Origin: Thermodesulfobacteriota bacterium
GTDB taxonomy: Bacteria > Desulfobacterota_D > UBA1144 > Nemesobacterales > UBA2774
Assembly: GCA_963422265.1 (NCBI GenBank)
Contig: OY729416.1
Location: 928,001-992,000 of the forward strand
Length of the DNA stretch: 64,000 nt
Reading direction: 5' to 3'
The translations under genes were made by a program, and so were the position numbers. Below, one piece after another: positions 20,028-63,418 of the stretch (position 1 is its first letter; each line of letters starts with the position of its first letter). The notes beneath the pieces were generated by a model that searched no databases, was not told where the DNA came from, and worked only from the letters and a program-made list of their open reading frames with translations.

Positions 20028-22015
20028 CTAGGAGCTTGGATTCGCAGCAATGCTAAGAACGTCAGTGGTTGCCCTAGACCAAGCATTGCCATCATCTTTA
20101 TCCGTGTAGTAAACGTAAGCGCGCAGATACTTGCCCACGTCCCCTTGCCCTTGCACAGGTGTATATGCGTCACTAGCCCCTTCGGGAAATACGTATTCAC
20201 AGTTAGTTGACATCTCCGCGTCATCACAACGCTCCCACCGCCAGTAACTGCGATGCACCGGAGTATTTACAGAATCCCCACGATTACCAGCATCCCAATC
20301 ACCATCATTTACCTCTACCCGTATTACTTGTCCAACCCGCGGAGAAGTATGACCTGAATGAAAAACAGCAGCTGACGCGCTGGTATCAGTGGACGTTCTG
20401 TTTGCTTTTGCCCTTATCACTATGGCATTAGTGTAAACCTTTTCTTCCTTACCATTGTCCACAATCGTCACGTATGCCCTTAGAAAATAATTCGCATCTC
20501 CAGATTCCGGGATAAGTAGGTAGCTTCTATTGTTATTTGCTAGACTTCTACTAGAAATGTCCTCCCAGCCACTAACGCCGTTAGGTGAACGTTCCCATTT
20601 CCAATTCCCTGCACCGTCTCCATTACTACTAGCCTTGCGTTTACCCCTCAGGTTCCCAATCAGCCCAACTGTTACAGGCTCGCCCACTATTGCGGAATTC
20701 CAATGGTCAGGATGAATAAATGCTCTGCGTTGCCCCGGCACACCCTTTATTGTCGGATACTGACGCGACCCACCAAAGTCCCATGGGTCATCTATATTCC
20801 AACCCGCATAAATCCCATCGTAGTCTTTGTAGTCTTTAGGTATTTGAAGATCTCGCGTGGTCTTACCTAGAACACTTGTATTTATATGATCCCCGCGGTA
20901 GCCTTCCATGGAAGTTGATATATCCCAGTATGCTCTATTTATTCTAGGAGACCAATAACCAGGCGCCTCTACCCCAATCAGCCCACCGCGACTTCCTGCC
21001 GTCCTCCTTACCCTGCCGATAGAGTAAACGGAATCTATGATACCCTCTGAAACCCCTCCGACCAGCCCACCAACACGGTATCCCCCTTGCGCGCTACCGG
21101 TGGCATAGGCGACTTGGATGGTGGCGCGCCGGGAGAACCCAACCAGCCCACCAACAACACCTCCCCCTCGCACATTGGCTGTGGAGTAGCTTTTAGTAAT
21201 TTTACCTTTGCTAAGGTTTTGGCCAACTAACCCCCCTAGCCTAATGACTAGAGCACCTTTCGCCACCCCAGTTTGCTTTACTTCACCAGTAACATAGCAA
21301 CTAGTTATAGTTCCCTCGTTCCTCCCAGCCAGCCCACCGATCTCGGAGCTATTATATTTGTTGTTAATATGTTGAGTTATCTTGACGTTTTTCAAGCCCA
21401 AGTTTTGCACTTTACCTAAGGTGCCCACTATGCCGAATAGCCCTAAGTTGAGAGTTCTTGTGGTCTCGATCGGCGTAGTAAAGTTGATGAATAGATTAGA
21501 GATAGTATTTCCGTTGCCCTCGAAGGTCGCGTTAAAATGGCTACGGCTAGAAAAGATGGGTATCCAGCCACGGCCGCCGTTCCAATAAGTAGGATCACCC
21601 GTTTCTGTAATAGTACCATCGTCGTCCTCGTCAAAGTCTAAGTCTGTGGTCAGTTCATAGCCAATGCATCCGGAAGAGGGGCAACCCATAGAGGCTTATG
21701 CGTCGGGGAAGGCAGTAGTGTAGGACGCGCTATTACTAGAACTATCTACCTGTCCATCTCCGTCTAGGTCCCAGCGAATAGCGTTGAGTTGAGCAAGGTT
21801 AGATATTTCTATAAGTTGGTCATCATCAGTGTCGTAGTCAGTAGTAGTTTGGGCGAGTGCAGTATGCGAGAAGAGAGCAGATAAAGCAAAGAAGACTGTA
21901 GATAGTATAGGTGTTAATAGAGAATAAGGTTTCTCATATCGTGGAAAATGGGGGGGGGGGGGGGGGGGGGGGTAGAAGAGATGGTTAGTTTATTGATAAC
22001 AAAGCTATGTTTCAT
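20028..22015 (-). pseudogene. Secreted GLUG-motif/Ig-like surface protein gene, out of frame at a C23 tract and with an in-frame TAA
   Basis: Extended -10 and SD precede ATG 22015 (MKHSFVINKLTISST-P7...). The signal peptide (...VFFALSALFSHTALA|QTTTDYDTDDDQLIEISNLAQLNAIRWDLDGDG) is in the frame of ORF 20028-21689 but separated from it by TAA 21696-21698. The body has GGLAG/GGLVG repeats and two WERx...YLRAYV Ig-like modules. Confidence 0.8.
21950..21972 (-). repeat. Homopolymer G23 (C23 on coding strand)
   Basis: Counted directly; starts in codon 15 after ATG 22015. Confidence 0.9.
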
Positions 22016-29259: not shown

Positions 29260-32200
29260 CTACAATAACAGCTTCCACCATAATAGTATTCCGTGATCCA
29301 CAACTCCACTAGAAACCTCTCGACGCTCCCCCTCCAAACTTATATCCATCCACTCTCCTACACCTACCTTGCCACCCAACCTATACTCGCGCTCCCCCTC
29401 CCCCATAATAGATATGCCACTGTATGGCGTTACAAGCCACCCACTACCTCGCGTCTCCATACCATATCCAACATCAAACTTCACACGCCCAGAAGATAAA
29501 CCCCGCTTCCCTACTCCTAACCCACTCTCTACCTCACCTCGCCACATTCGCTCTACTCCACTCGCTACCTCTCCCCACTCAGGCTCAAACATCAACCACA
29601 ATCCACGTCCCCGAACCCCATCACCCATCCGCAATGAAAAACTACCTCCCCAATCCTCAAACTCAGACTCCTCATGAAACAACAAATACCTCCCTCGAAC
29701 CTCCACGCTCAAACCCAAACCTCTATGAACATACTCTATACCTCCGCCTACCTCCATACCTACTCCACTATCCGCATCTCCGCCGTCCCATCGCCCCCCT
29801 ATCTCCACACTTGGTAGCAACAAAGAATCTCCTGTCACATACACGTCACGGCTCATCTCTAAACCTAATCGCAAACGACGCGCTACTCCACTAACACCAG
29901 AAAGACCTTCCACCCCCTCTGTCTTTAACTGCACTGCAAAACCATCACTCTTTAACCCAAAATCTATATCTCCCCATCTAGCCAACTCCTGCCGCACTCC
30001 CAACGCTACCATCAGCATATTTACGTCCGCCTCCACTTCTCCTGCTGCATCTTTCAACTCTACCTCACCTATTCCACCCCCTACCAAACCCCATATACTA
30101 AGACCAGGACGTATAGTGTAGTGCGCATATGGAAGAACGCTTGTCAACTCCAAATCTACCTCCCCTCGGATACTACCTGTCTCTCCACTCATAAGATAAA
30201 AGCTACCATCCACCTCATACTCCACCTCTCCAACACTACGAGATATCGCTACGCCCGCCAAACCCCTATTACCAAACCTATAGTCCAATCCCATGTAGCC
30301 CGTATACAACTCACCCTCTGTATCTATATCTCCATCCAAATTACTACCAGAAAATCCACTACCCGCACCACTGCCCCATAACGTCCACCCTCGCATCACT
30401 CCCCCCATATCATCACCACTACTACTCAAAGGAATAGAAAATTCGCTCTGCGCAAACAAATCCCTCCCAGAAACACGCCGTAACTCAACAGGCTCTAGAT
30501 CTAAACCCTCCAACAATTCAATATCTGAACCACCACTCAGACCCAACACCCCATCCACAGCTCCTGCCACAGAACGAGTGTCAAACGATGTCATAGAAAC
30601 ACCACCCAATGTCAATTTAGGACTACCTGCCAGAGAAGAAGAAGAAACAAAACGTTCACCTATTACGTCCACCGCTCCGGTTGCAGCTGCCCGTCCAAAA
30701 GAAGCTAACACTACAGAAAGAACACGCGCTCGCTCCTTTTCCTCGGCTGCACGAACCGTTATGCTAAATGACAACTCACTTGTATCGCCATCTACGTCCT
30801 CAGCCTTGTAGGTGAACTTCGTCTTAGCTAACGCCTCAGTCGGCTTGCCAGTGATAGCGCGAGGAGAATCATCATTAAACTTAAGATCCAATGGTAGAGA
30901 CGGTCTCAGACTGTAGGTAATAACACCGTCACCACCAGTAGCCTCAGGTAGAACAACATCAACAACTTCCACACCAACCGTCCAGACATAGTCCCCAATG
31001 GATTCTGAACCGAAAGTCGGCTTTGGCGAACCCAATACAAAAGTAGAAAAACTACTCGTTTTACCGCATACATAACCGCTGGGCACCGATGCAGGCGACG
31101 GCAGCTTCCTCCACCCCGCACCTTCTACATCGGCAAGATGATATACCGATAGATTACCTGACAGCTCTTCGGGCTCCTCCAGACAGACGATGGCACTTGA
31201 TGATGACGAGAGCTCCACGTCCAGATCTATATCCACGTAAGACGGTTTACCCCCAAAGCTCACGCCCGACGGCTCAGTAACAGTGGGCGCCGCCGGTGAA
31301 AACTCAATCTCCGTCACGCCGTGTCCAGATGGCAGCGTCAGCTTCACAGCCGTCTCGTCAACCGTTGCCGTGATGATGCTGCGACCACCGTCCTCTACTA
31401 CATCAATAATCGTGCCAGAGTCAGCACCGCTGATGTTAATCACCTTCGCAGTGGCAGTCGAGGTAAGAGATTCCGATGCCCCACCAGCGTCCGTCCAACT
31501 CACTACTACTGTGATCACAGAACCTACGTCCGCCTGTGTCAGAACGTAGGTGCTAGTAGTGGCGCCGCTGATGTCAGTCCCGCCTCGCTTCCATTGATAG
31601 CTGAACGTCAGATTACTCGGACCGTCTGGGTCAACAATCGTGCCGGTATCCGCGGTCAGTGTCTGGCCCTGGGTCGCCGTCCCCGTAATGGTTACCGCAC
31701 CAGTCGGCGAGTCGTTTACGTTCGCTACACTTGCTGTAGCAGCAGAGGTCAGAGATTCCACTGTACTACCGCTGTCCGTCCAACTCACTACTACTGTGAT
31801 CACAGAACCGACGTCCGCCTGTGTCATAATGTAGGTGCTACTGGTCGCCCCGTTGATATCAGTCCCGCCTCGCTTCCATTGATAGCTGAACGTCAGACTG
31901 CTCGGACCGTCTGGATCAACGATCGTGCCGGTATCCGCTGTAAGCGTCTGCCCCTGGGTTGCCGTCCCCGTAATGGTTACCGCACCAGTCGGCAAGTCGT
32001 TTACGTTCGCTACACTTGCTGTAGCAGCAGAGGTGAGGGATTCCGATGTCCCACCAGCGTCCGTCCAACTCACTACTACTGTGATCACAGAACCGACGTC
32101 CGCCTGTGTCAGAATGTAGGTGCTACTGGTCGCCCCGCTGATGTCAGTCCCACCCCGCTTCCATTGATAGCTGAACGTCAGATTACTCGGACCGTCTGGG

Positions 32201-35200
32201 TCAACAATCGTGCTGGTATCCGCGGTCAGTGTCTGGCCCTGGGTTGCCGTCCCCGTAATGGTTACCGCACCAGTCGGCAAGTCGTTTACGTTCGCTACAC
32301 TTGCTGTAGCAGCAGAGGTGAGGGTCTCCGCAGTGCCGCCCCCGTCAGTCCAGCTCACAGTGACGGTGATTGCCGCCCCGACGTCCGCCTGTGTCAGAAT
32401 GTAGGTGCTACTGGTCGCCCCGCTGATGTCAGTCCCACCCCGCTTCCATTGATAGCTGAACGTCAGATTACTCGGGCCGTCTGGATCAACGATCGTGCTG
32501 GTATCCGCGGTCAGTGTCTGGCCCTGGGTCGCCGTGCCGGTGATGGTGACTGCACCAGTCGGCGAGTCGTTTACGTTCGCTACACTTGCTGTAGCAGCAG
32601 AGGTAAGAGTCTCCACTGTACTACCGCTGTCCGTCCAACTCACGGTGACGGTGATGACAGACCCGACGTCTGCCTGTGTCAGAACGTAGGTGCTACTGGT
32701 CGCCCCACTGATGTCAGTCCCACCTCGCTTCCACTGATAGCTGAACGTCAGACTACTCGGACCGTCAGGGTCGGAGATGCCGGAGGTATCCGCGGTCAGT
32801 GTCTGGCCCTGGTTTGGGGTGCCGGTGATGGTGACGCTGCCGGTCGGTGGGTCGTTAGCGTTGGTTACGCTCGCTGTCGCAGTCGAGGTAAGAGTTTCGG
32901 CAGCACCGCCGCTGTCGGTCCAGCTCACTACTACTGTGATCGCAGAACCTACGTCTGCCTGTTTCAGAACGTAGGTGTTACTGGTCGCCCCACTGATGTC
33001 AGTCCCACCTCGCTTCCATTGGTAGCTGAAGGTCAGACTGCTCGGGCCGTCAGGGTCGGAGACGCCGGAGGTGTCCGCAGTCAGTGTCTGGCCCTGGGTC
33101 GCCGTGCCGGTGATGGTTACCGCACCAGTCGGCGGATCGTTAGCGTTGGTTACACTTGCTGTCGCAACAGAGGTGAGAGATTCCGCCGTGCCGCCCCCGT
33201 CGGTCCAACTCACTACTACTGTGATCGCAGAACCTACGTCCGCCTGTGTCAGAACGTAGGTGTTACTGGTCGCCCCACTGATGTCAGTCCCACCTCGCTT
33301 CCATTGGTAGCTAAATACCAAATTACTCGGCCCGTCCGGGTCGGAGATCGCGCTGGTCACCGCGGTCAGTGTCTGGCCCTGGGTCGCCGTCCCGGTGATG
33401 GTTACCGAACCCGTCGGCGAGTCGTTTAGGTTCGCTACGTTCGCTGTCGCCGCCGAGGTGAGGGTCTCCACGATGCTGCCGCTGTCCGTCCAACTCACTA
33501 CTACTGTGATGACAGAACCTACGTCCGCCTGTTTCAGAACGTAGGTTCTACTGGTCGCCCCGCTGATGTCAGTCCCACCTCGCTTCCATTGGTAGCTGAA
33601 GGTTAGACTGGCCGGGCCGTCCGGGTCGGAGATCGCGCTGGTCACCGCGGTCAGTGTCTGGCCCTGGGTCGCCGTCCCGGTGATGGTGACTGCCCCGGTC
33701 GGTGAGTCGTTTAGGTTCGCTACGTTCGCGGTCGTAGCAGAGGTAAGAGTTTCGGCAGTGCCGCCATCATCGGTCCAGCTCACGGTGACGCTGATGGCCG
33801 ACCCGACGTCGGCTTGCGTCAGGGTATACGACGCCTGGTTGGCGCCGCTGATGGCGGTGCCATCGCGTTTCCATTGGTAGGTGAAGGTTAGATTACTCGG
33901 ACCGTCAGGGTCAACGATCGTGCTGGTATCCGCTGTAAGCGTCTGCCCCTGCGTCATCGTACCCATGATGGTTACCAAACCAGTCAGGGTGACGACCACG
34001 AAATCGGACTCCACCCCCGTAACACTGCCGGCCACCGCACGGATGCGAAATCTATATATAGTGCCGTTGGTCAGACCCGTCACCGTGTGTGTGATCGGGT
34101 CCTTCCCACTCCCCGATATGTCAACCCAGTTGCCAGGGTTAGGCTCGGTATTGCCAGTCCACTGCTTATACTGATACTTGGTGATGACGGGATTGTTCGG
34201 ATCACTCCAGCTTAACGTTACTTCACCATCACCGGTACTGGCACTGAGGTCGGGCTTGCCTGGGACCACCATGGGGATCACTACTGCGGTGTAAGGGGAC
34301 TGCGACCCCGTAACACTGCCGGCCACCGCCCGAATACGGAAACTATACTCAACGCCGTTGGTCAGACCCGTCACCCCGTAGCGAACAGTGTCCTTATCAC
34401 TGGGATTAATGTCCACCCAATTACCCCAACTGCCTCGCTCGCCACCGCCCGTCCATTGCCTGATCTGATATTTGGTGATGTCGGCGTTATTTGGATTATT
34501 CCAGCTTAACGCTATTTCACCGTCACCTGCCACTACCTTGGGGCGGGTGGGACTTCTTGGAGGCGCGGCCACCGGCGTCGCCCGGACAACATTCGACTCC
34601 GTTACTACAACGCCGTTGGTCAACCCGCGAATACGGAAGCTATACGTCACGCTGTTGGTCAGACCCGTCACCCTGTATTCAATGAGCGTGGTTGATATGG
34701 TGGCTGAAATATCGCGCCAATCCCCCGTCTCGCTACTGCCCGTCCATTGCCTGATCTGGTACTTGGTGATGGTGGTATCCTTCTGATCAGACAGATTCGG
34801 ATCACGCCAGATCAGCTCGATTTGTTTGTACCGGGCCTGCGCACTGATTTTAGTAGGCGCTGCCTGTACCGGCGGTGCCGCTACCAGCTTGACAACGGTG
34901 ACAGTGGACGCCGGCCCATAGGCGGCGGGCCCATGGGCATAGTCGCCAGCCACGGCCCGAATGCGGAAGTAGTATTTGACGCCGGTGGGTAAACCGGTCA
35001 CTACGTGGCTGATGGTGTCTTTGTCGCTGCCCGGGATGTCGCCCCAGTCATTCCAGTCGCCGGTCTTGCTCCCGTCTTGTGCAGTCCGTACGTCGCGTCG
35101 CCGGATCTGGTATTTGATGATGTCAGTATTGTTGGGATTACTCCAGTTTAACGTTATTTGTCTGTCGCCGGGTACCGGTGGTACCACGGTGACGTTAGGC

Positions 35201-35651
35201 CTTGCGGTAGGCGCGGTCGGAATGGGCCCGGGGGTCACGGTAATAACGTCGGACGGCGCTCCTGTAACATTGCCGGCGGCTACCGCACGAATGCGGAAGT
35301 GATACTTAACACCGTCACGCAGACCCCGCACCGAGACGCTCTGCGCGCTAATAGTACCTGCAAAGTTAAACCAGCCAAACGGCTCGGTATCGCCATCAAT
35401 CCATTGCTTATACTGATACTTGGTGATGGCGGCATTATCCGGATTATCCCAGCGGAACTTTACCTGACGGATGCTCGCCACCGCCTTGAGACCAGTGAGC
35501 TTAGTGGGGGGGGGGGGCTACCTGCGCCTGAACAACGGCGGGCAGCAACAGAAACAGAGCGACAGCAACACCAAGTAAAGAGAGAGAAAGAAGACGTTGC
35601 ATCATATCTCTTTCGGGGGGGGGGGGGGGGGGGGGTAACTTTTATAATCAT
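29260..35651 (-). CDS. Giant autotransporter-like adhesin (about 5 FN3 domains, 9 Ig-like repeats, further Ig-like domain, C-terminal beta-barrel); 5' end interrupted by two poly-C frameshifts
   Basis: ORF 29260-35481 (2073 aa) has no signal peptide. A signal peptide MMQRLLSLSLLGVAVALFLLLPAVVQA is encoded from ATG 35605 in another frame, and a leader MIIKVT-Pn from ATG 35651 in the third frame. Confidence 0.85.
31420..33984 (-). repeat. Nine tandem 285-bp (95-aa) Ig-like coding repeats
   Basis: Unit TGAVTITGTATQGQTLTADTS...YQWKRGGTDISGATSSTY...QADVG...SWTD...ND counted nine times; shadow ORFs recur at 285-bp spacing. Confidence 0.95.
35506..35517 (-). repeat. Homopolymer G12 (C12 on coding strand), just after the signal peptide
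   Basis: Counted directly. Confidence 0.9.
35615..35635 (-). repeat. Homopolymer G21 (C21 on coding strand), before the signal peptide
   Basis: Counted directly. Confidence 0.9.
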
Positions 35652-35698
35652 AATACCTTTCACTTTAATAACTTTCTAATGTCTTTGTCAACAGGACA

Positions 35699-35716
35699 CC
35701 CCTTTTCTAAAGGAGG
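35699..35716. repeat. REP-like C/G hairpin repeat, partial copy 3
   Basis: CCCCTTTTCTAAAGGAGG matches the core of copy 1. Confidence 0.55.
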
Positions 35717-35802
35717 AAACAAATGGGGTGCATGACCGGACTTTAACTAATGACGTGGTTTTAGCAAAGAACGGAGTGATAACTCGTTCTACAACCCCAT
35801 TT

Positions 35803-35831
35803 CTGGATTCCCGCCCCCGAGCGGGAATGAC
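35803..35831. repeat. GTCATTCCC...GGGAATCCAG palindromic element (right copy, inverted)
   Basis: CTGGATTCCCGCCCCCGAGCGGGAATGAC with stem ATTCCCGC/GCGGGAAT. Confidence 0.7.
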
Positions 35832-35889
35832 GGATGGGGGAATAGATACCTGTTCAAGGTAGTAATGACAAAGGACGCGACCCTACGCA

Positions 35890-36669
35890 TCACATAACAG
35901 GCTTAATCGCTGAGAAAAATATACGTTGGTAAATATAGAAGATTGGACTTTTGGGATATAACTTGCGAAGTTCCTCACGGTATCTATCTACAAATTTCTC
36001 ATGTAACTCATCGGGCAAACGCTCAAAGTAAGGTAAAAAGGCAGTGCCTGAAAGCCAGTCTATTATCGAATCAACGTCTTTAAGAACGTGAATATAAACC
36101 TTTTCAAATACGTCTATATTCGTGGCTTGGCACTCATACAGCAATCTAGCATACTGCCCTGTAGATAGCACGGACAAACCCCTCTGCCAACCATCTAAAG
36201 CCCCCTTATAAGGCTTTTCATTAGCAACTTGAGCAATTAACCTTTGGGTTGGATGGTTATGATTAGCGGGAAGCTGCACTGCAATCTGCCCCCCACTATG
36301 AAGTAATGAAAACAGCCTTGGTATTAACTCGTTATGGTTTTCCACCCATTGTATCGCCGCGTTTGAGAATATCAGATCCCACCGACCTGATAACTCTTGA
36401 ATTGAAAGCAACTTAAAATCAAGCCCGCGGTGCTTTCTCTCGCTCGCCCCCTCAAGCATGTTAGGGGAGGTATCAATGCCAAGCACCTTGCTATTGGGGA
36501 GTATATTTGAAACCAATTCGGTCAACTCGCCAGTGCCGCAGCCTAAATCTATCGCGTTTAAACCTTCTCTGATCAAGATTAGGTTAATCAAGTCTTGAAA
36601 AGGCGCGAACCGCTCTTTCTGAAATTTATGATACAATGCAGGATTCCATGACATTTGACTCTGCGACAT
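35890..36669 (-). CDS. SAM-dependent methyltransferase, trans-aconitate methyltransferase-like
   Basis: WNPALY..ER..PF.DL, DLGCGTG, IFSNAAIQW, IAVQLP. Confidence 0.85.
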   Translation of the reverse strand: MSQSQMSWNPALYHKFQKERFAPFQDLINLILIREGLNAIDLGCGTGELTELVSNILPNSKVLGIDTSPNMLEGASERKHRGLDFKLLSIQELSGRWDLIFSNAAIQWVENHNELIPRLFSLLHSGGQIAVQLPANHNHPTQRLIAQVANEKPYKGALDGWQRGLSVLSTGQYARLLYECQATNIDVFEKVYIHVLKDVDSIIDWLSGTAFLPYFERLPDELHEKFVDRYREELRKLYPKSPIFYIYQRIFFSAIKPVM

Positions 36670-45252: not shown

Positions 45253-47103
45253 TTAAAAAGCCTGCCCTATGCTTAAAAAGAACCGGAAATTTCTAGTCTC
45301 GGATCCGGAATTTAGAGCATAACCAACATCAAATCCTAAGGGACCTATACGCGTATTATATCTTAGCCCTAGTCCCGGTGCATATTTTAATTGATCAAGA
45401 GGGAGTTCCCACCCCTTCTGGTACACGTTACCGTAATCAAAGAATGCTACTCCACTGAAACTACCGCGTAAGGGAAATCTTAACTCAAGGCTCCCCGTGA
45501 GAAGTGAGTTGCCCCCAAGCGGATCACCGTCCTCATCAAGAGCACCCAACTTCTGGAAGGAAAACCCCCTCATGCTAGAACTACCGCCCGCAAAAAACCT
45601 CTTGAATATAGGCACGTCAAACGTGCTGGTCGAGCCAAATGGTTGTATAACGCCCACACTAAGCCTTTTCGCTAAGACTAAGCGGCGCAGCTTCTTATAC
45701 CTTCTTAACTCGAGGGTGCCTTTTAGGTAGTTAACCTCGGACGCTAGAGCCCTGAATGAAGATTCAAGGCTTGATGAAACCACGGTTCCTCTGGAAGGAT
45801 TCAAAATACTGTCCGTCGTATTCCTCTCAATAACAGTATTGAAGAAAGTAAGAAAGAAATTCTCATGGCGTTTGTAATCGAGGGTCCCTGTCGTTTTGTC
45901 CCGCACGTTTGAAAATTGGACGTTGAAGGAGCCAGACCACAAGTAATTTTTGTAAAAACCTTTTTGCACCCTTCCAGCAACCAAAAAGCCTCTACTCTCA
46001 AAGCTCGACACATTGTTCCTTTCAAAATTGAGAAACCCTGAGACCTCAGAGTCTTTTCCAAGGATAAAAGGCTGCGCTAGGCTAGTCTCTACCTTTTGAG
46101 TAATAAAAGAGAACTTGCCAGATGCCCCTAATCTTCTACTACCCCCGAGAAAGTTGCTATGAGTCCAGACGACCTGAGCCCTGAGTTTATCTTCAGTGCC
46201 AAAGCCACCTCCCACCTTTACGGATCCGTGTTTTCTTTCTTTGACAACCATTTTCACGTTGGCGACCCTATCTTCGTCATTAAATACTGGATCAACTACA
46301 ACTAGCCTGAATAAGCCAAGTTGCAGAATACTAGTCTGCGTATCATTGAGTTTTTCCAGTGAATACGATTCACCCTCCTCGAAATCCGCCTCCCTTTCAA
46401 TTATATGGCTCTCAATATCGTCATTGCCTTCTACCCTTATAGTTCCGAATTTATAAATAGCAACCGGGTCTATAACGAATCTCACACGCGCCCATCTCTC
46501 CCTTCTATTTACAAGCGCCTCACCTTCAACCTCAGCCTTAGGATATCCGTTATTTGAAAGAACCTCTGATATTGCCTGCCTCAACCGCCGGTATGCGATT
46601 ATGGAAAAGACATCGCCAGTCTCCAGGGACAAAGCCCGGCTGACCTCTTTTTTTATTTCGTTACTTAGATTCCATTTATATGCTATATCAAACTCAGTTA
46701 GTATGACCGGTCGTCCTTCCTCTATATTGATAGTAATATTGACGCGCTTTCGGTCCTCACTATAGCTAAGTTCATAAGCAGATTGCACATCGTGGTAACC
46801 GTGATGCGCATAAAGACTTTTTATCCTAGCCATATCATTCTTTAAGATTTCTTCATCTAGCGCAGGTCTCTGCAGCCAGAATTTGGACGAGGGGAACTCA
46901 GTCCGCATATTTCGCTCTATCTCTCGCTCGCCAAGCGCTTTAGCTCCTTTTATCGTTATCTTGGAAATGCGGGCTGAACCCCCTGAGTCTTTCGCTTCCT
47001 GAGCCAAATCTTGAGCTTCTTGGGAGAAAGCGGTGGTTGAATAGCTAAGAGGCATCCCACATAAAGCAAGGCAAAAAAAGATTCCGATTACAAGTCTGGT
47101 CAT
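45253..47103 (-). CDS. Omp85-family outer-membrane protein, TamA-like (three POTRA-like domains plus barrel)
   Basis: Signal peptide, GY motifs in POTRA segments, FFAGGSSSMRGF, terminal IGQAF. Confidence 0.88.
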   Translation of the reverse strand: MTRLVIGIFFCLALCGMPLSYSTTAFSQEAQDLAQEAKDSGGSARISKITIKGAKALGEREIERNMRTEFPSSKFWLQRPALDEEILKNDMARIKSLYAHHGYHDVQSAYELSYSEDRKRVNITINIEEGRPVILTEFDIAYKWNLSNEIKKEVSRALSLETGDVFSIIAYRRLRQAISEVLSNNGYPKAEVEGEALVNRRERWARVRFVIDPVAIYKFGTIRVEGNDDIESHIIEREADFEEGESYSLEKLNDTQTSILQLGLFRLVVVDPVFNDEDRVANVKMVVKERKHGSVKVGGGFGTEDKLRAQVVWTHSNFLGGSRRLGASGKFSFITQKVETSLAQPFILGKDSEVSGFLNFERNNVSSFESRGFLVAGRVQKGFYKNYLWSGSFNVQFSNVRDKTTGTLDYKRHENFFLTFFNTVIERNTTDSILNPSRGTVVSSSLESSFRALASEVNYLKGTLELRRYKKLRRLVLAKRLSVGVIQPFGSTSTFDVPIFKRFFAGGSSSMRGFSFQKLGALDEDGDPLGGNSLLTGSLELRFPLRGSFSGVAFFDYGNVYQKGWELPLDQLKYAPGLGLRYNTRIGPLGFDVGYALNSGSETRNFRFFLSIGQAF

Positions 47104-58005: not shown

Positions 58006-58009
<4 letters not shown>
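55718..58009 (-). CDS. Polytopic membrane protein with a duplicated C-terminal soluble domain; putative GT-C-like glycosyltransferase
   Basis: Many TM segments, YWWG motif, two copies of F(E/D)VY...L(I/V)YV.E.C...FLH..PV...DL...FDN(L/M)DF...C..(V/A)R.LPDY.IA...TGQY; GTGA overlap with the upstream GT2. Confidence 0.7.
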
Positions 58010-59283
<1,274 letters not shown>

Positions 59284-60640: not shown

Positions 60641-63418
60641 TTATATTAACCGCTCAAGCACGTCCCTTATCTCTCCTGGATGCCTTACCACGTCGAACCT
60701 CCACTGTCCAAAACCGCCGTGAGCACTTACGGCTTTGACCCACTCTTTCATATATTCATGCTTTGCATCGTCCGCGTTGGTCTGCTGCCCTTTTGTTTCA
60801 AGCACAAGAAAGTCGCCATTTGCCAGTCGGATGAGAAAATCGGGACGGTATCTTCTGACCACGCCATTGTAAATATAAAGAACGTCAAAACCTAGATGAT
60901 CGTTTTTGACCCATGCAGCAACCGCTTCATTGTTATCTAGCTGAAAAGAGTCGGAAGATTCCCACGGGCTGTCAAATACGCAATAGTTGATATGGCTTTT
61001 TTTCGTCCATTCGCAAGGTTTTCCCGTTCCCCAAGGACGCATATCGCCAGTAGATCTAATAGGGTGGCCAGTATCAAAAATAATTTCCATTTTCTCAGTG
61101 TTGTTAAACTCTATAGCACGCCAAAAATGATTGATAACTTTCGACATGTTTAACTTTATTACAAGCTGTCTCCTCCTTTTATCTCTATTGAAAAGCTCAG
61201 GAGATATTTGAATTCTATCTGAATCTATATACTGCTCTGTGAGGCGTACAAGTTCCGCCATCAGCACGGACGGAGAAGCCTGCCAAGTAGGTTTCATCTT
61301 TTGCCAGATGGATTGAGCCGCTTTGAAAATAGCCGTCTGTTTGCGCAGCCTCTTCATCAACTCTTCAACGTCTATGTCCTTGATTTTGGAAACGTCTGGA
61401 TTATTATCAATTGTTGGAGCAATTTCTACTATTTGCACAGTTTTTGAGGCATTAAGTTCTAACGACCTGACCTTACTCCAATCGACGGAAAGCTCCGGCT
61501 TGTATGTCCTATCTATTCTTATGACGTTGGGCCATTTGATGAAGAATTCTTTTTTCTCTTCAAAGGGTTTGACAACTATTTTAGGCGACGGAGGTGGTGC
61601 ATCTACACCGCCCTCCTCGTGAGGAAGAAAACTGAACGGCACGCCGAATACGTTGACGTATTCCGCATCAAATAGTCCAGTATTTTCGTTAATTTCATAA
61701 GAGGCGCGTCTGAGACCGCGCCCGACTACCTGTTCACAGAGAAGTTGACTTGTGAAGGCACGCAATCCCATGATTTGTGTAACCGTTCGCGCGTCCCAAC
61801 CTTCGGACAACATCCCAACGGAGATAACGTTCTGTATCTTTTCTCCCAGCTCACCGAGTTGTCCAACCGTATTGACTTGCTTTCTGAGTATCTCGGACTG
61901 CTCTTTCTGCGTAATTTTTTGTCCTTTGGTCCCTTCACTATCCGCTGACTTCACCGCTTGTTGTAGCTCCGGTTCATTTTGCTCAGCCTGTTTCAATACT
62001 TTTGAGTCTATGTGCAAAATGCCTTCGGGGGCGCACAGCGAGTCAACCATTATGTCCTTGTTGTCAAACGCGTGCTTGATCCTAGCCGCCGTTTCAGTGC
62101 GGTTGGCAACCGTAATTATCACTGGAGGGGTTTCACGCCCGTCCCAATTCTCTTTTGTTCTTTGCCAGTCCGAACCCAACAAAGCGTAGGCGTTTATTAC
62201 AAGATCGGGTAACGGCTCGTGAGTTTCCGCCCTGCGGTTTAGATCGTCTTTGACTTCGGGGTCGTTGTAAATGTGGTAGAGGCGGGATTTATAGGTTGTG
62301 GCGTCCGGCGCGGCGTCATCGCGCACAACGATGCGCGGCGTTTTGACGAGACCTGATTCAATGGCGTCATTTAGTCCAAAGTCGCTGACGGTCCATCCAA
62401 ACAACGCTTCTTCTGACGTTTTCCTTCCACTCGGCACAAAAGGGGTGGCGGAAAAATCAAAACAGTTCAAAATCCCCCGCGTTTTATGTATGCGGTCAAG
62501 CCCGCCAATCCACTTCGTAGCTTCTTCTATTTCCTCTTTTTTAACGCCTTTTATCTTTGACCCGGCGGGAACGCGCCAAGCATGATGCGCCTCGTCATTG
62601 ATAACAACCAGCTTATGGGAGGTTGCCATATCCCCTAACACTTCACGGACATATGCTTCATCACTTTTTGCACCTCGTTTATCAACACCTTTCTTCTTTC
62701 TTATTCTTTCCTCAGTTTCCCAATTTAGGATGTGCCAGTTTCGTATAAGAATCTTTGCCTGTAAGAGCTTCTCTCTCAAAGACAGCGGGACAACGCCAAA
62801 TTCGTCGTAGTAGCTTGTTTTTGAAGGGATAAGGACGGAAAGGCGTTCCCTGACCGTGAGATTGGGGGCTACAATAAAAATATTCTGAGAAAAACGCCCG
62901 TCCCTTGGGTAGGTTGCGCGGTTAATTGCCTGCCACACAATCAGCATCGCCATAACAACGGTTTTCCCTGTTCCAGTGGCGAGTTTGCAGCACAAGCGGC
63001 GAAACTCTCCTCCGTCAGTTGGAATATCCATACCCGCCTTTTCGGAATCAGGAGATTCAATAAGCCATATCAGCGTTTCAATCGCCTCTATCTGGCAGAA
63101 GAAAAACGGATAACCCCTCTGCTCGTTATCTTTCCAGTGTTCAAGCAGTGTTTTTGTAATGCCGGTAATTCCCGGGTAGCCCGCGTCGCGCCAAGCGTCA
63201 ACGCGCTGGCGTATTTGATTTACAAGCGGCAGTTCAACAAAGACTCCCCAATCCTGATAGGGATTCACCGTAGGATCGGCAATCATATACCCAGCCTTGC
63301 GACGCCCTTGTTTAAGCTCAAGAGGCCTTCCTTCCTCAACAAATTGCCAGTGTTTGGAAGGTTCAGTATATGGGGAGTTGATGATGAGGGTGGAATGGTG
63401 GTAGTTGTCTTTCTTCAT
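60641..63418 (-). CDS. res: Type III restriction enzyme Res subunit (helicase plus PD-(D/E)xK nuclease)
   Basis: KLATGTGKT, NDEAHH, FSATP, MLSEGWD, EQVVGRGLRR, C-terminal YRPDF...LETKG. Confidence 0.9.
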   Translation of the reverse strand: MKKDNYHHSTLIINSPYTEPSKHWQFVEEGRPLELKQGRRKAGYMIADPTVNPYQDWGVFVELPLVNQIRQRVDAWRDAGYPGITGITKTLLEHWKDNEQRGYPFFFCQIEAIETLIWLIESPDSEKAGMDIPTDGGEFRRLCCKLATGTGKTVVMAMLIVWQAINRATYPRDGRFSQNIFIVAPNLTVRERLSVLIPSKTSYYDEFGVVPLSLREKLLQAKILIRNWHILNWETEERIRKKKGVDKRGAKSDEAYVREVLGDMATSHKLVVINDEAHHAWRVPAGSKIKGVKKEEIEEATKWIGGLDRIHKTRGILNCFDFSATPFVPSGRKTSEEALFGWTVSDFGLNDAIESGLVKTPRIVVRDDAAPDATTYKSRLYHIYNDPEVKDDLNRRAETHEPLPDLVINAYALLGSDWQRTKENWDGRETPPVIITVANRTETAARIKHAFDNKDIMVDSLCAPEGILHIDSKVLKQAEQNEPELQQAVKSADSEGTKGQKITQKEQSEILRKQVNTVGQLGELGEKIQNVISVGMLSEGWDARTVTQIMGLRAFTSQLLCEQVVGRGLRRASYEINENTGLFDAEYVNVFGVPFSFLPHEEGGVDAPPPSPKIVVKPFEEKKEFFIKWPNVIRIDRTYKPELSVDWSKVRSLELNASKTVQIVEIAPTIDNNPDVSKIKDIDVEELMKRLRKQTAIFKAAQSIWQKMKPTWQASPSVLMAELVRLTEQYIDSDRIQISPELFNRDKRRRQLVIKLNMSKVINHFWRAIEFNNTEKMEIIFDTGHPIRSTGDMRPWGTGKPCEWTKKSHINYCVFDSPWESSDSFQLDNNEAVAAWVKNDHLGFDVLYIYNGVVRRYRPDFLIRLANGDFLVLETKGQQTNADDAKHEYMKEWVKAVSAHGGFGQWRFDVVRHPGEIRDVLERLI

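Follow-up and report, generated by a model that had tools for sequence, protein, structure and literature searches.

The gene for a giant protein on the minus strand of the 64,000-nt stretch of DNA that was analysed (the window) is probably a contingency, or phase-variable, locus, in which a switch made of two poly-C tracts in series would control a Sec-exported protein anchored in the outer membrane. According to this model, a portable cassette would provide the promoter, the SD sequence and the start codon ATG 35651, which opens the leader MIIKVT. The first tract (tract 1, C21) would be translated as prolines within an extended signal peptide and would decide whether the ribosomes that started at ATG 35651 enter the signal-peptide frame. 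The second tract (tract 2, C12), placed at a proline linker just behind the predicted cleavage site, would decide whether the signal peptide is joined to the passenger and its barrel, and slipped-strand mispairing would alter each tract independently of the other. Judging from the reading frames, export would have to find tract 2 at 11 or 14 bases and would most probably also need tract 1 at 20 or 23. Three elements of the model are what we infer, namely that the tract lengths vary, that ATG 35651 is used and that tract 1 gates expression rather than only modulating it.

All coordinates are window positions unless marked as genome positions, the gene being read from the minus strand, on which every coordinate given by the first-pass annotation was found again. 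An SD-like AAAGG (35660-35656) is followed by a 4-nt spacer (TATT) and by ATG 35651 (35651-35649), from which the codons ATG ATT ATA AAA GTT A.. read MIIKVT; the segment holding the SD-like motif and the leader (35636..35660) is the same in copies at genome 303,9xx and 871,3xx. The leader leads directly into tract 1 (C21, G21 on the plus strand; 35615..35635), and the order of AAAGG, ATG 35651, MIIKVT and C21 noted in the first pass was therefore confirmed on the sequence. Next comes a signal-peptide module of 97 nt (35518..35614), composed of GAAAGAGAT, ATG 35605, ATG 35602, a hydrophobic core and VVQA|QVA, whose ATGATG (35605-35600) opens MMQRLLSLSLLGVAVALFLLLPAVVQA|QVA in a second frame. 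When the frame arithmetic was recomputed, tract 1 was again out of frame with the signal peptide, which requires C20 or C23, as had been stated. The signal-peptide frame then enters tract 2 (C12; 35506..35517), behind which the sequence continues with ACT AAG CTC..., and at the current C12 it closes at the TAA at 35501..35503, also as first described. The passenger lies in the third frame (TKLTGLKAVASIRQVKFRWDNP...), open from tract 2 to the stop codon at 29262-29260, and the claim that it needs C11 or C14 proved correct both by arithmetic and by comparison with the homologous junction described below. In the assembly, both tracts are out of frame, and C21 and C12 both fall within the first 150 nt of the gene. 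The leader frame itself spans the two tracts at their current lengths (C21/C12) and reaches its stop at 35460..35462, giving 63 aa from ATG 35651 and 67 aa from GTG 35663; the earlier statement that a 67-aa leader frame passes both tracts stop-free holds from the GTG. By its sequence, the putative signal peptide shows a basic n-region, a hydrophobic core of ~20 residues and VQA ahead of the junction, and the gene thus appears to possess the N-terminal Sec signal peptide that type Va autotransporters call for.

Base composition predicts 0.02 C-runs and 0.02 G-runs of at least 12 in the whole genome, and about 2-3e-8 runs of at least 21 for each of C and G. Because 14 G/C runs of at least 12 are present, against 0.02 expected of each base, a chance origin of the tracts is excluded. 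Two properties by which contingency loci are recognised were found here: the 5' coding region of a surface-related gene contains a long repeat, and adding or removing one unit switches an otherwise intact frame between open and closed, as seen both in a computed table of frame states and at the homologous junction.

Behind tract 2 the frame remains unbroken for 2,081-2,085 codons, and 29260..35505 holds the passenger and its anchor (2,081 codons and a stop codon). The passenger comprises five Fn3 domains, about 9-11 Ig-like repeats of 95 aa, a He_PIG-like domain (a weak match) and a C-terminal barrel. A tandem array of 285-nt units in 8.9 copies (31460..33985) encodes the Ig-like repeats, which match Pfam AIR9 A9. 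The C-terminal 400 aa (29263..30462) correspond to an outer-membrane beta-barrel that is 90-98% identical in four other paralogues and has 6,954 relatives at E <= 0.001, almost always at the C-terminus of large proteins. Against these last 400 aa, the autotransporter beta-domain PF03797 scored 25.1 bits (E 1.8e-5), with a cut-off of 26, and it was matched by 8 of 26 aligned relatives at E <= 0.001, the best at 3.2e-10. The AlphaFold2 model of the C-terminal domain (pLDDT 83.6) is a beta-barrel of ~18 strands with no long helix; the classical type Va criterion is a 12-stranded barrel with an alpha-helical linker in the pore. Foldseek matched the model to the beta-domains of BrkA, Hbp, EspP and NalP (TM by target 0.50-0.59), and 22- to 26-stranded receptors and LptD scored as well as these autotransporter beta-domains, while the best PDB hit for the sequence of the last 546 aa had an E of only 0.12. 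On the basis of the near-cut-off PF03797 score, the matches of the relatives and the predicted barrel fold, the product is called an autotransporter-like, outer-membrane-anchored Fn3/Ig-repeat protein. The adhesin label of the first pass is a presumption, the product being an Fn3/Ig-repeat protein with a C-terminal outer-membrane barrel. Among 150 representatives of the barrel family, 4 carried a P or G run of at least 5 in their first 90 aa and 2 of those resembled a leader-run-signal peptide arrangement; at 2 of 150, a count that off-state genes would escape, this layout was rejected as a general trait of the family. The window also contains an Omp85-family gene of 616 aa (45253-47103, minus strand), which scores just above the BamA cut-off and also matches the autotransporter assembly factor TamA, and a BPTD_3080-family restriction endonuclease gene (60641-63418, minus strand).

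The genome, a single contig of 1.78 Mb with 44% G+C, carries five paralogous giant genes that share the barrel domain at 90-98% identity, and all five start with a short leader ORF running into a poly-C tract. The MIIKVT leader precedes C21 in this gene, C22 at genome 303901 and C37 at genome 871285, a MNQP... leader precedes C15 at genome 21106 and C56 at genome 1040423, and a third leader family (MKHSFVINKLTISST) precedes C24, C23 and C40 in other exported proteins. Leaders ahead of the tracts have 6-29 codons and the tracts range from C15 to C56. Only this gene and the 1040423 paralogue are unbroken behind the tract, the other three giant genes carrying extra frame breaks, and only this gene has a second tract. 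Two of the nine leader-type tracts in the genome, a G35 run in a glycosyltransferase gene included, are in frame with long ORFs and seven are out. Tract lengths differ widely among paralogues and homologues (C15-C56, G17-G25), which speaks for instability over evolutionary time only. Since MutS and MutL are intact, the loss of mismatch repair was ruled out as a cause of the long tracts.

Upstream of tract 1, ~60 nt are common to all three MIIKVT copies and consist of a promoter-like site, the SD-like AAGG and the six leader codons; the identity runs on through the tract to GAAA, and there this gene departs from its paralogues. The promoter, MIIKVT leader and poly-C tract thus make up a cassette that is present in three copies in the 1.78-Mb genome. 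Its promoter-like site (TTGACA-18 nt-TAAAGT; 35662..35691, minus strand) has 10/12 matches and is conserved in 3/3 cassette copies, and its use would leave a 5' UTR of merely about 3-5 nt. Including a second and weaker one, 2 promoter-like sites were found, compared with 0.8 +/- 1.0 in shuffles. Upstream of the cassette lies a remnant resembling the 3' end of a tRNA-His (35724..35748, minus strand), and because an intact tRNA-His adjoins the copy at genome 871k, the sequence suggests that the cassette was copied along with its flank. A search of kin genomes with the 401-nt 5' region matched 3 of 41 genomes including its own, the other two through the tRNA-like remnant only (27-37 nt, E about 4e-4), and the MNQP cassette matched 2 of 101 genomes of the order, again including its own, the other match being 30 nt long (E 0.002). 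By sequence search, the promoter-leader cassettes were therefore not found in the 41 and 101 kin genomes. Small REP-like hairpin repeats of the CCCCC-TTTAGAAAA-GGGGG and CCTCC-TTTACAAAA-GGAGG types are strewn through the intergenic DNA (window 35700-35730; genome 134600-134800, 1662760-1663420, 1773250-1773700 and many more), often beside short C8-C11 runs, and one of them lies just upstream of the -35 hexamer of the cassette. Two close pairs of short tracts, at genome 1662922/1663160 and 1773371/1773542, were rejected as further two-tract genes because they sit in such repeats.

Long tracts were also observed elsewhere. A G23 run at 21950-21972 goes with the ORF at 20028-21689 (minus strand), which encodes an exported GLUG-motif protein; the leader MKHSFVINKLTISST enters this C23 out of frame with the protein. 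This copy also has TAA where the in-frame paralogue at genome 134996 (C24) has CAA, and it may be broken twice. A G35 run (59155-59189, equal to genome 987155) is located in a family-2 glycosyltransferase ORF (58006-59283, minus strand), 94 nt after the ATG; it keeps the frame, and its translation would be a stretch of about 12 prolines. A similar layout, with C36 in frame ahead of a glycosyltransferase-like gene, was seen in the metagenome-assembled genome (MAG) OY730442.1 (L055). Two giant paralogues have a C9 run 20-70 nt past their stop codon (genome 323317-323325 and 855881-855889). Just upstream of the 21106 paralogue, genome 20175-20570 contains a 27-aa barrel piece and an N-terminal piece of MutS with two stops, and this region seems to have been rearranged repeatedly.

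The architecture of the 5' region recurs in a second genome. In the species collection, cassette matches were found only in OY730442.1, a MAG labelled Arenicellales that has about 60% G+C at those loci and is rich in tracts of 14-36 bases. One of its genes (L024 770-950) carries a MNQP-type promoter, SD and leader of nearly the same DNA, followed by C18. Compared with genome 1040290-1040422, the DNA of this locus is nearly identical over the promoter, the SD and the 3' half of the leader, synonymous positions included, which suggests, across genomes of 44% and ~60% G+C, either a recent transfer or a constraint at the DNA or RNA level. An in-frame 6-nt indel separates the MNQP leaders of the same two loci and argues for translation of the leader. 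Two further MAG genes, at 547k and 2439k, carry homologues of the signal-peptide module of the gene studied here. At 547k, a strong SD and an ATG are followed by a leader of 15 codons, G17, the signal peptide (..MLFLLLPTVVQA) and Fn3, all in a single uninterrupted reading frame, and 2439k has the same layout with G25, out of frame. The order of leader, homopolymer and signal peptide is thus a conserved architecture with the leader ATG as start; by analogy, tract 1 is probably intragenic, and leader, tract 1 and signal peptide would together form an extended signal peptide of ~43 residues. At the place of tract 2, the 2439k homologue reads GTA GCC CCC GCT CAG CCC ACC GGT (QVAPAQPTG), with C5 and in frame, and the 547k homologue has no C run. 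As the junction VVQA|QVAP..PTGLKAV is conserved between this gene and the MAG homologues, the open state of tract 2 is fixed at 11 or 14, and the role of tract 2 as an obligatory frame gate gained support from homologues in another genome that read straight through the same junction. Because the MAG homologues have C5 or no run there, tract 2 is a lineage-specific expansion of a run of proline codons, in the type of linker found ahead of the Fn3 domains of these proteins. The first pass had named tract-free homologues with a matching N-terminus as evidence against the switch, and this was found by half: the homologues keep a tract before the signal peptide and have none after it.

The computed state table made explicit what each combination of tract lengths would yield. 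C20/23 fuses the leader to the signal peptide and C11/14 fuses the signal peptide to the passenger, and starting from ATG 35651 the signal peptide and the passenger are joined solely when C20/23 is combined with C11/14. When C18/21/24 is combined with C10/13, the passenger would be made but lack the signal peptide, which bears out the earlier proposal that compensating changes could have this effect. With C19/22/25, a leader peptide of 15-17 aa ends at a TGA nested inside the ATGATG, a stop/start overlap at which re-initiation could occur. From the internal ATG 35605 or 35602, tract 2 alone matters.

The choice of start codon therefore bears on the role of tract 1. ATG 35651 is a credible start by analogy, because the leader ATGs of homologous genes and sister cassettes are real starts: strong SDs precede them in the sister cassette families, several cassette copies have no other possible start, and at three loci (genome 134996, genome 987155 and MAG 547k) the leader ATG is in frame with a long ORF. 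Counting against a leader start are the SD in front of MIIKVT, which is weaker than in the other leader families, and the very short 5' UTR that the stronger promoter-like site would leave. We consider it somewhat unlikely, though it is the main alternative, that the real start is instead ATG 35605 or 35602. The MIIKVT-proline stretch would then be an upstream ORF or 5' leader, by which tract 1 only tunes expression: C19/22/25 would turn the gene on by coupled re-initiation, at C21 the leader ribosomes would occlude the start and C20/23 would give the fused form, with on and off set by tract 2 alone and tract 1 acting as a three-level dimmer. Apart from the short leader peptides and the A[TGA]TG overlap, GAAAGAG is found 2 and 5 nt ahead of the two internal ATGs. 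The second promoter-like site (TAGAAA-17-TATTAT; 35678-35650, minus strand) would place the transcript start after ATG 35651 and thereby leave the leader ATG out of the transcript. In the copies that carry another post-tract module with an internal in-frame NTG (TTG at 303k, GTG at 871k and in MAG L024), a TGA overlaps each NTG, in 3/3 cases in exactly the frame state that stops there, and AGGA or GGAG precedes the NTG by 7 nt in the 303k and MAG L024 copies; however, an NTG followed by A makes TGA ~30% of the time by itself, and the three copies are homologous rather than independent cases. The barrel-family representative P0029 also has a Met directly after a G6 run, whereas the g1040, g21 and MKHS-family copies are devoid of an internal start and in the MAG 547k homologue the ORF runs unbroken from the leader ATG. 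A loose contig end in sequencing run X2 (single contig, 30 letters) also speaks against an internal start, since there a variant n-region of the signal peptide has other codons in place of both in-frame ATGs. As a precedent for leader-peptide control, the pil1 pilus locus of S. gallolyticus is described as carrying a repeat that alters the length of a leader peptide and changes downstream expression in an attenuation-like manner (PMC3894217). A leader-peptide attenuation switch of the pil1 type calls for a terminator between the repeat-bearing leader ORF and the gene, and no terminator-like site was detected here between 35651 and 35500, and the sole one in 35300-36000 (35891-35874) is upstream of the promoter-like site. 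The claim that the leader start and both tracts are needed for export thus held as to the credibility of ATG 35651, but the internal ATGs with the nested TGA could bypass tract 1, and a strict AND gate is plausible at slightly less than an even chance.

A search for an on-state protein bearing this signal peptide was made with a 46-aa stop-to-stop translation; it gave 1,277 candidates among longer proteins and 0 at E <= 1. In metagenome contigs, 0 exact matches were obtained for a 22-nt stretch of the signal-peptide module and likewise for one of the passenger start. The lack of an on-state protein is weak evidence against the switch.

Parts of the stretch were present in seven sequencing runs, none of them recorded as RNA. 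The four runs that were examined consist of contigs, which drop rare variants and in which the tracts are not phased on single reads. Tract 2 was C12 in the contigs of three runs of a single study, possibly with the source sample among them, with no gap or difference over 35013/35049-35579, and C12 is the dominant length in those three runs. No contig bridged C21, and breaks at this tract are uninformative because its flank is a repeat in three copies. In runs X2, X3 and X5, a strain with 8-9 differences in 545-587 nt upstream (35714/35756-36300) was detected. One X2 contig end was identical over 27 letters to the MAG 547k module, from which both organisms seem to share a sample, a setting that would fit an exchange of cassettes between them.

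The uniform C12 would also be expected if the gene were dead or dying, or if the tract lengths were assembly errors, that is, ordinary frameshifts or miscalls in a decaying paralogue family in which nothing switches. The extra breaks of the other giant genes point the same way, as three of the four carry several of them away from any homopolymer, and so do the gene fragments at genome 1040124 and 20175-20570 and the seven out-of-frame leader-type tracts out of nine. However, an open frame of 2,081-2,085 codons behind tract 2 is unexpected in a long-dead gene, both breaks fall exactly in long homopolymers, where mutations are most easily reversed, the second genome of about 60% G+C keeps this architecture with one copy in frame, and with MutS and MutL intact the tracts are no by-product of lost mismatch repair. 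We therefore regard decay or error as improbable. A systematic homopolymer over-call is a residual concern, both tracts being one base longer than their open lengths.

Slippage of RNA polymerase or of the ribosome might alternatively produce a fixed in-frame minority in every DNA state, the tracts then serving as attenuators. Tracts of 21-56 C are far longer than a frame switch needs, and RNA polymerase slippage on long homopolymers is established for A/T runs. But C/G runs slip less in transcription than A/T runs, and C12 is short for such a mechanism, which makes this explanation very improbable.

The junction sequence behind tract 2 occurs twice in the genome, here and in a 170-nt fragment at genome 1040124. 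The fragment (1040124-1040290) passes from the cassette end AAAGTTA through C9 to the start of the Fn3 passenger without the signal-peptide module, and it stops after about 55 codons, exactly at the MNQP promoter cassette of the next gene; it looks like the relic of a deletion or exchange between two tracts. In a wider reading, which we think unlikely, the tracts would combine a multi-state translational logic with a function as universal recombination joints. Tract 1 could then give rise to a fused extended signal peptide, to coupled re-initiation or to an out-of-frame leader that occludes the start, and tract 2 could be a binary gate behind the cleavage site, so that one gene could be expressed at graded levels and also be switched off completely. 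As joints, the tracts could allow paralogues, and even two unrelated bacteria living together (44% and about 60% G+C), to exchange promoter-leader cassettes, signal-peptide modules and passengers, and the 1040124 fragment would be a fossil of such an exchange or of a deletion between two tracts.

The two-tract switch, which is the reading we favour, can be placed among known systems. Frame switching by homopolymer slippage in surface-protein genes is textbook knowledge for a few host-adapted pathogens. In pilC and opa of Neisseria and hopZ of Helicobacter, a repeat tract in the signal-peptide coding region gates the frame. In Helicobacter sabA and Neisseria porA, a promoter tract and a coding tract together produce more than two expression states; the present gene likewise has two independent repeats, but both lie downstream of a start codon, whereas the promoter tract of sabA and porA sets the level of transcription. 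A slippage-prone repeat in the 5' coding region is also described as gating the frame of Helicobacter oipA (PMC10564699) and Gardnerella nanH3 (10.1101/2020.09.16.300947). Whereas pilC, opa, oipA, hopZ and nanH3 each contain a single tract, the tract of the present gene is preceded by a leader and joined by a second tract behind the cleavage site. The closest parallel in layout is the Bordetella pertussis autotransporter gene bapC (BP2738), which in Tohama I is described as having G11 in its 5' coding part with C14 upstream; the G11 allele yields a truncated protein, and the length of the tract was found to differ within individual cultures (PMC1891110). Like bapC as it is described there, this autotransporter-like surface-protein gene carries a pair of G/C homopolymers in the 5' portion of its coding sequence. 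In the present gene the two tracts lie on either side of the signal peptide, tract 1 is part of a portable promoter-leader cassette that paralogues have in common, and the genome contains tracts of up to C56. On the evidence of these accounts, two tracts in one autotransporter gene, repeats in signal-peptide regions and leader-peptide repeats were already known. A non-exhaustive search of the literature found no description of a signal peptide bracketed by two tracts, and this arrangement, the portable promoter-leader cassettes, tracts of up to C56 and a design shared by two genomes that differ in composition appear to be new.

Altogether, these results describe an unusually developed layout of the phase-variation type in an uncultured bacterium with a genome of 1.78 Mb and intact mismatch repair, where tracts of 15 to 56 bases stand behind portable promoter-leader cassettes on all five giant surface-protein genes. 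In annotation, such genes would be called truncated or devoid of a signal peptide. If both tracts switch, ~1/9 of the length states would give an exported protein, compared with 1/3 for a single tract, and switching would take place on two time scales. The locus could thus be well suited to studying the influence of repeats in series on bet-hedging.
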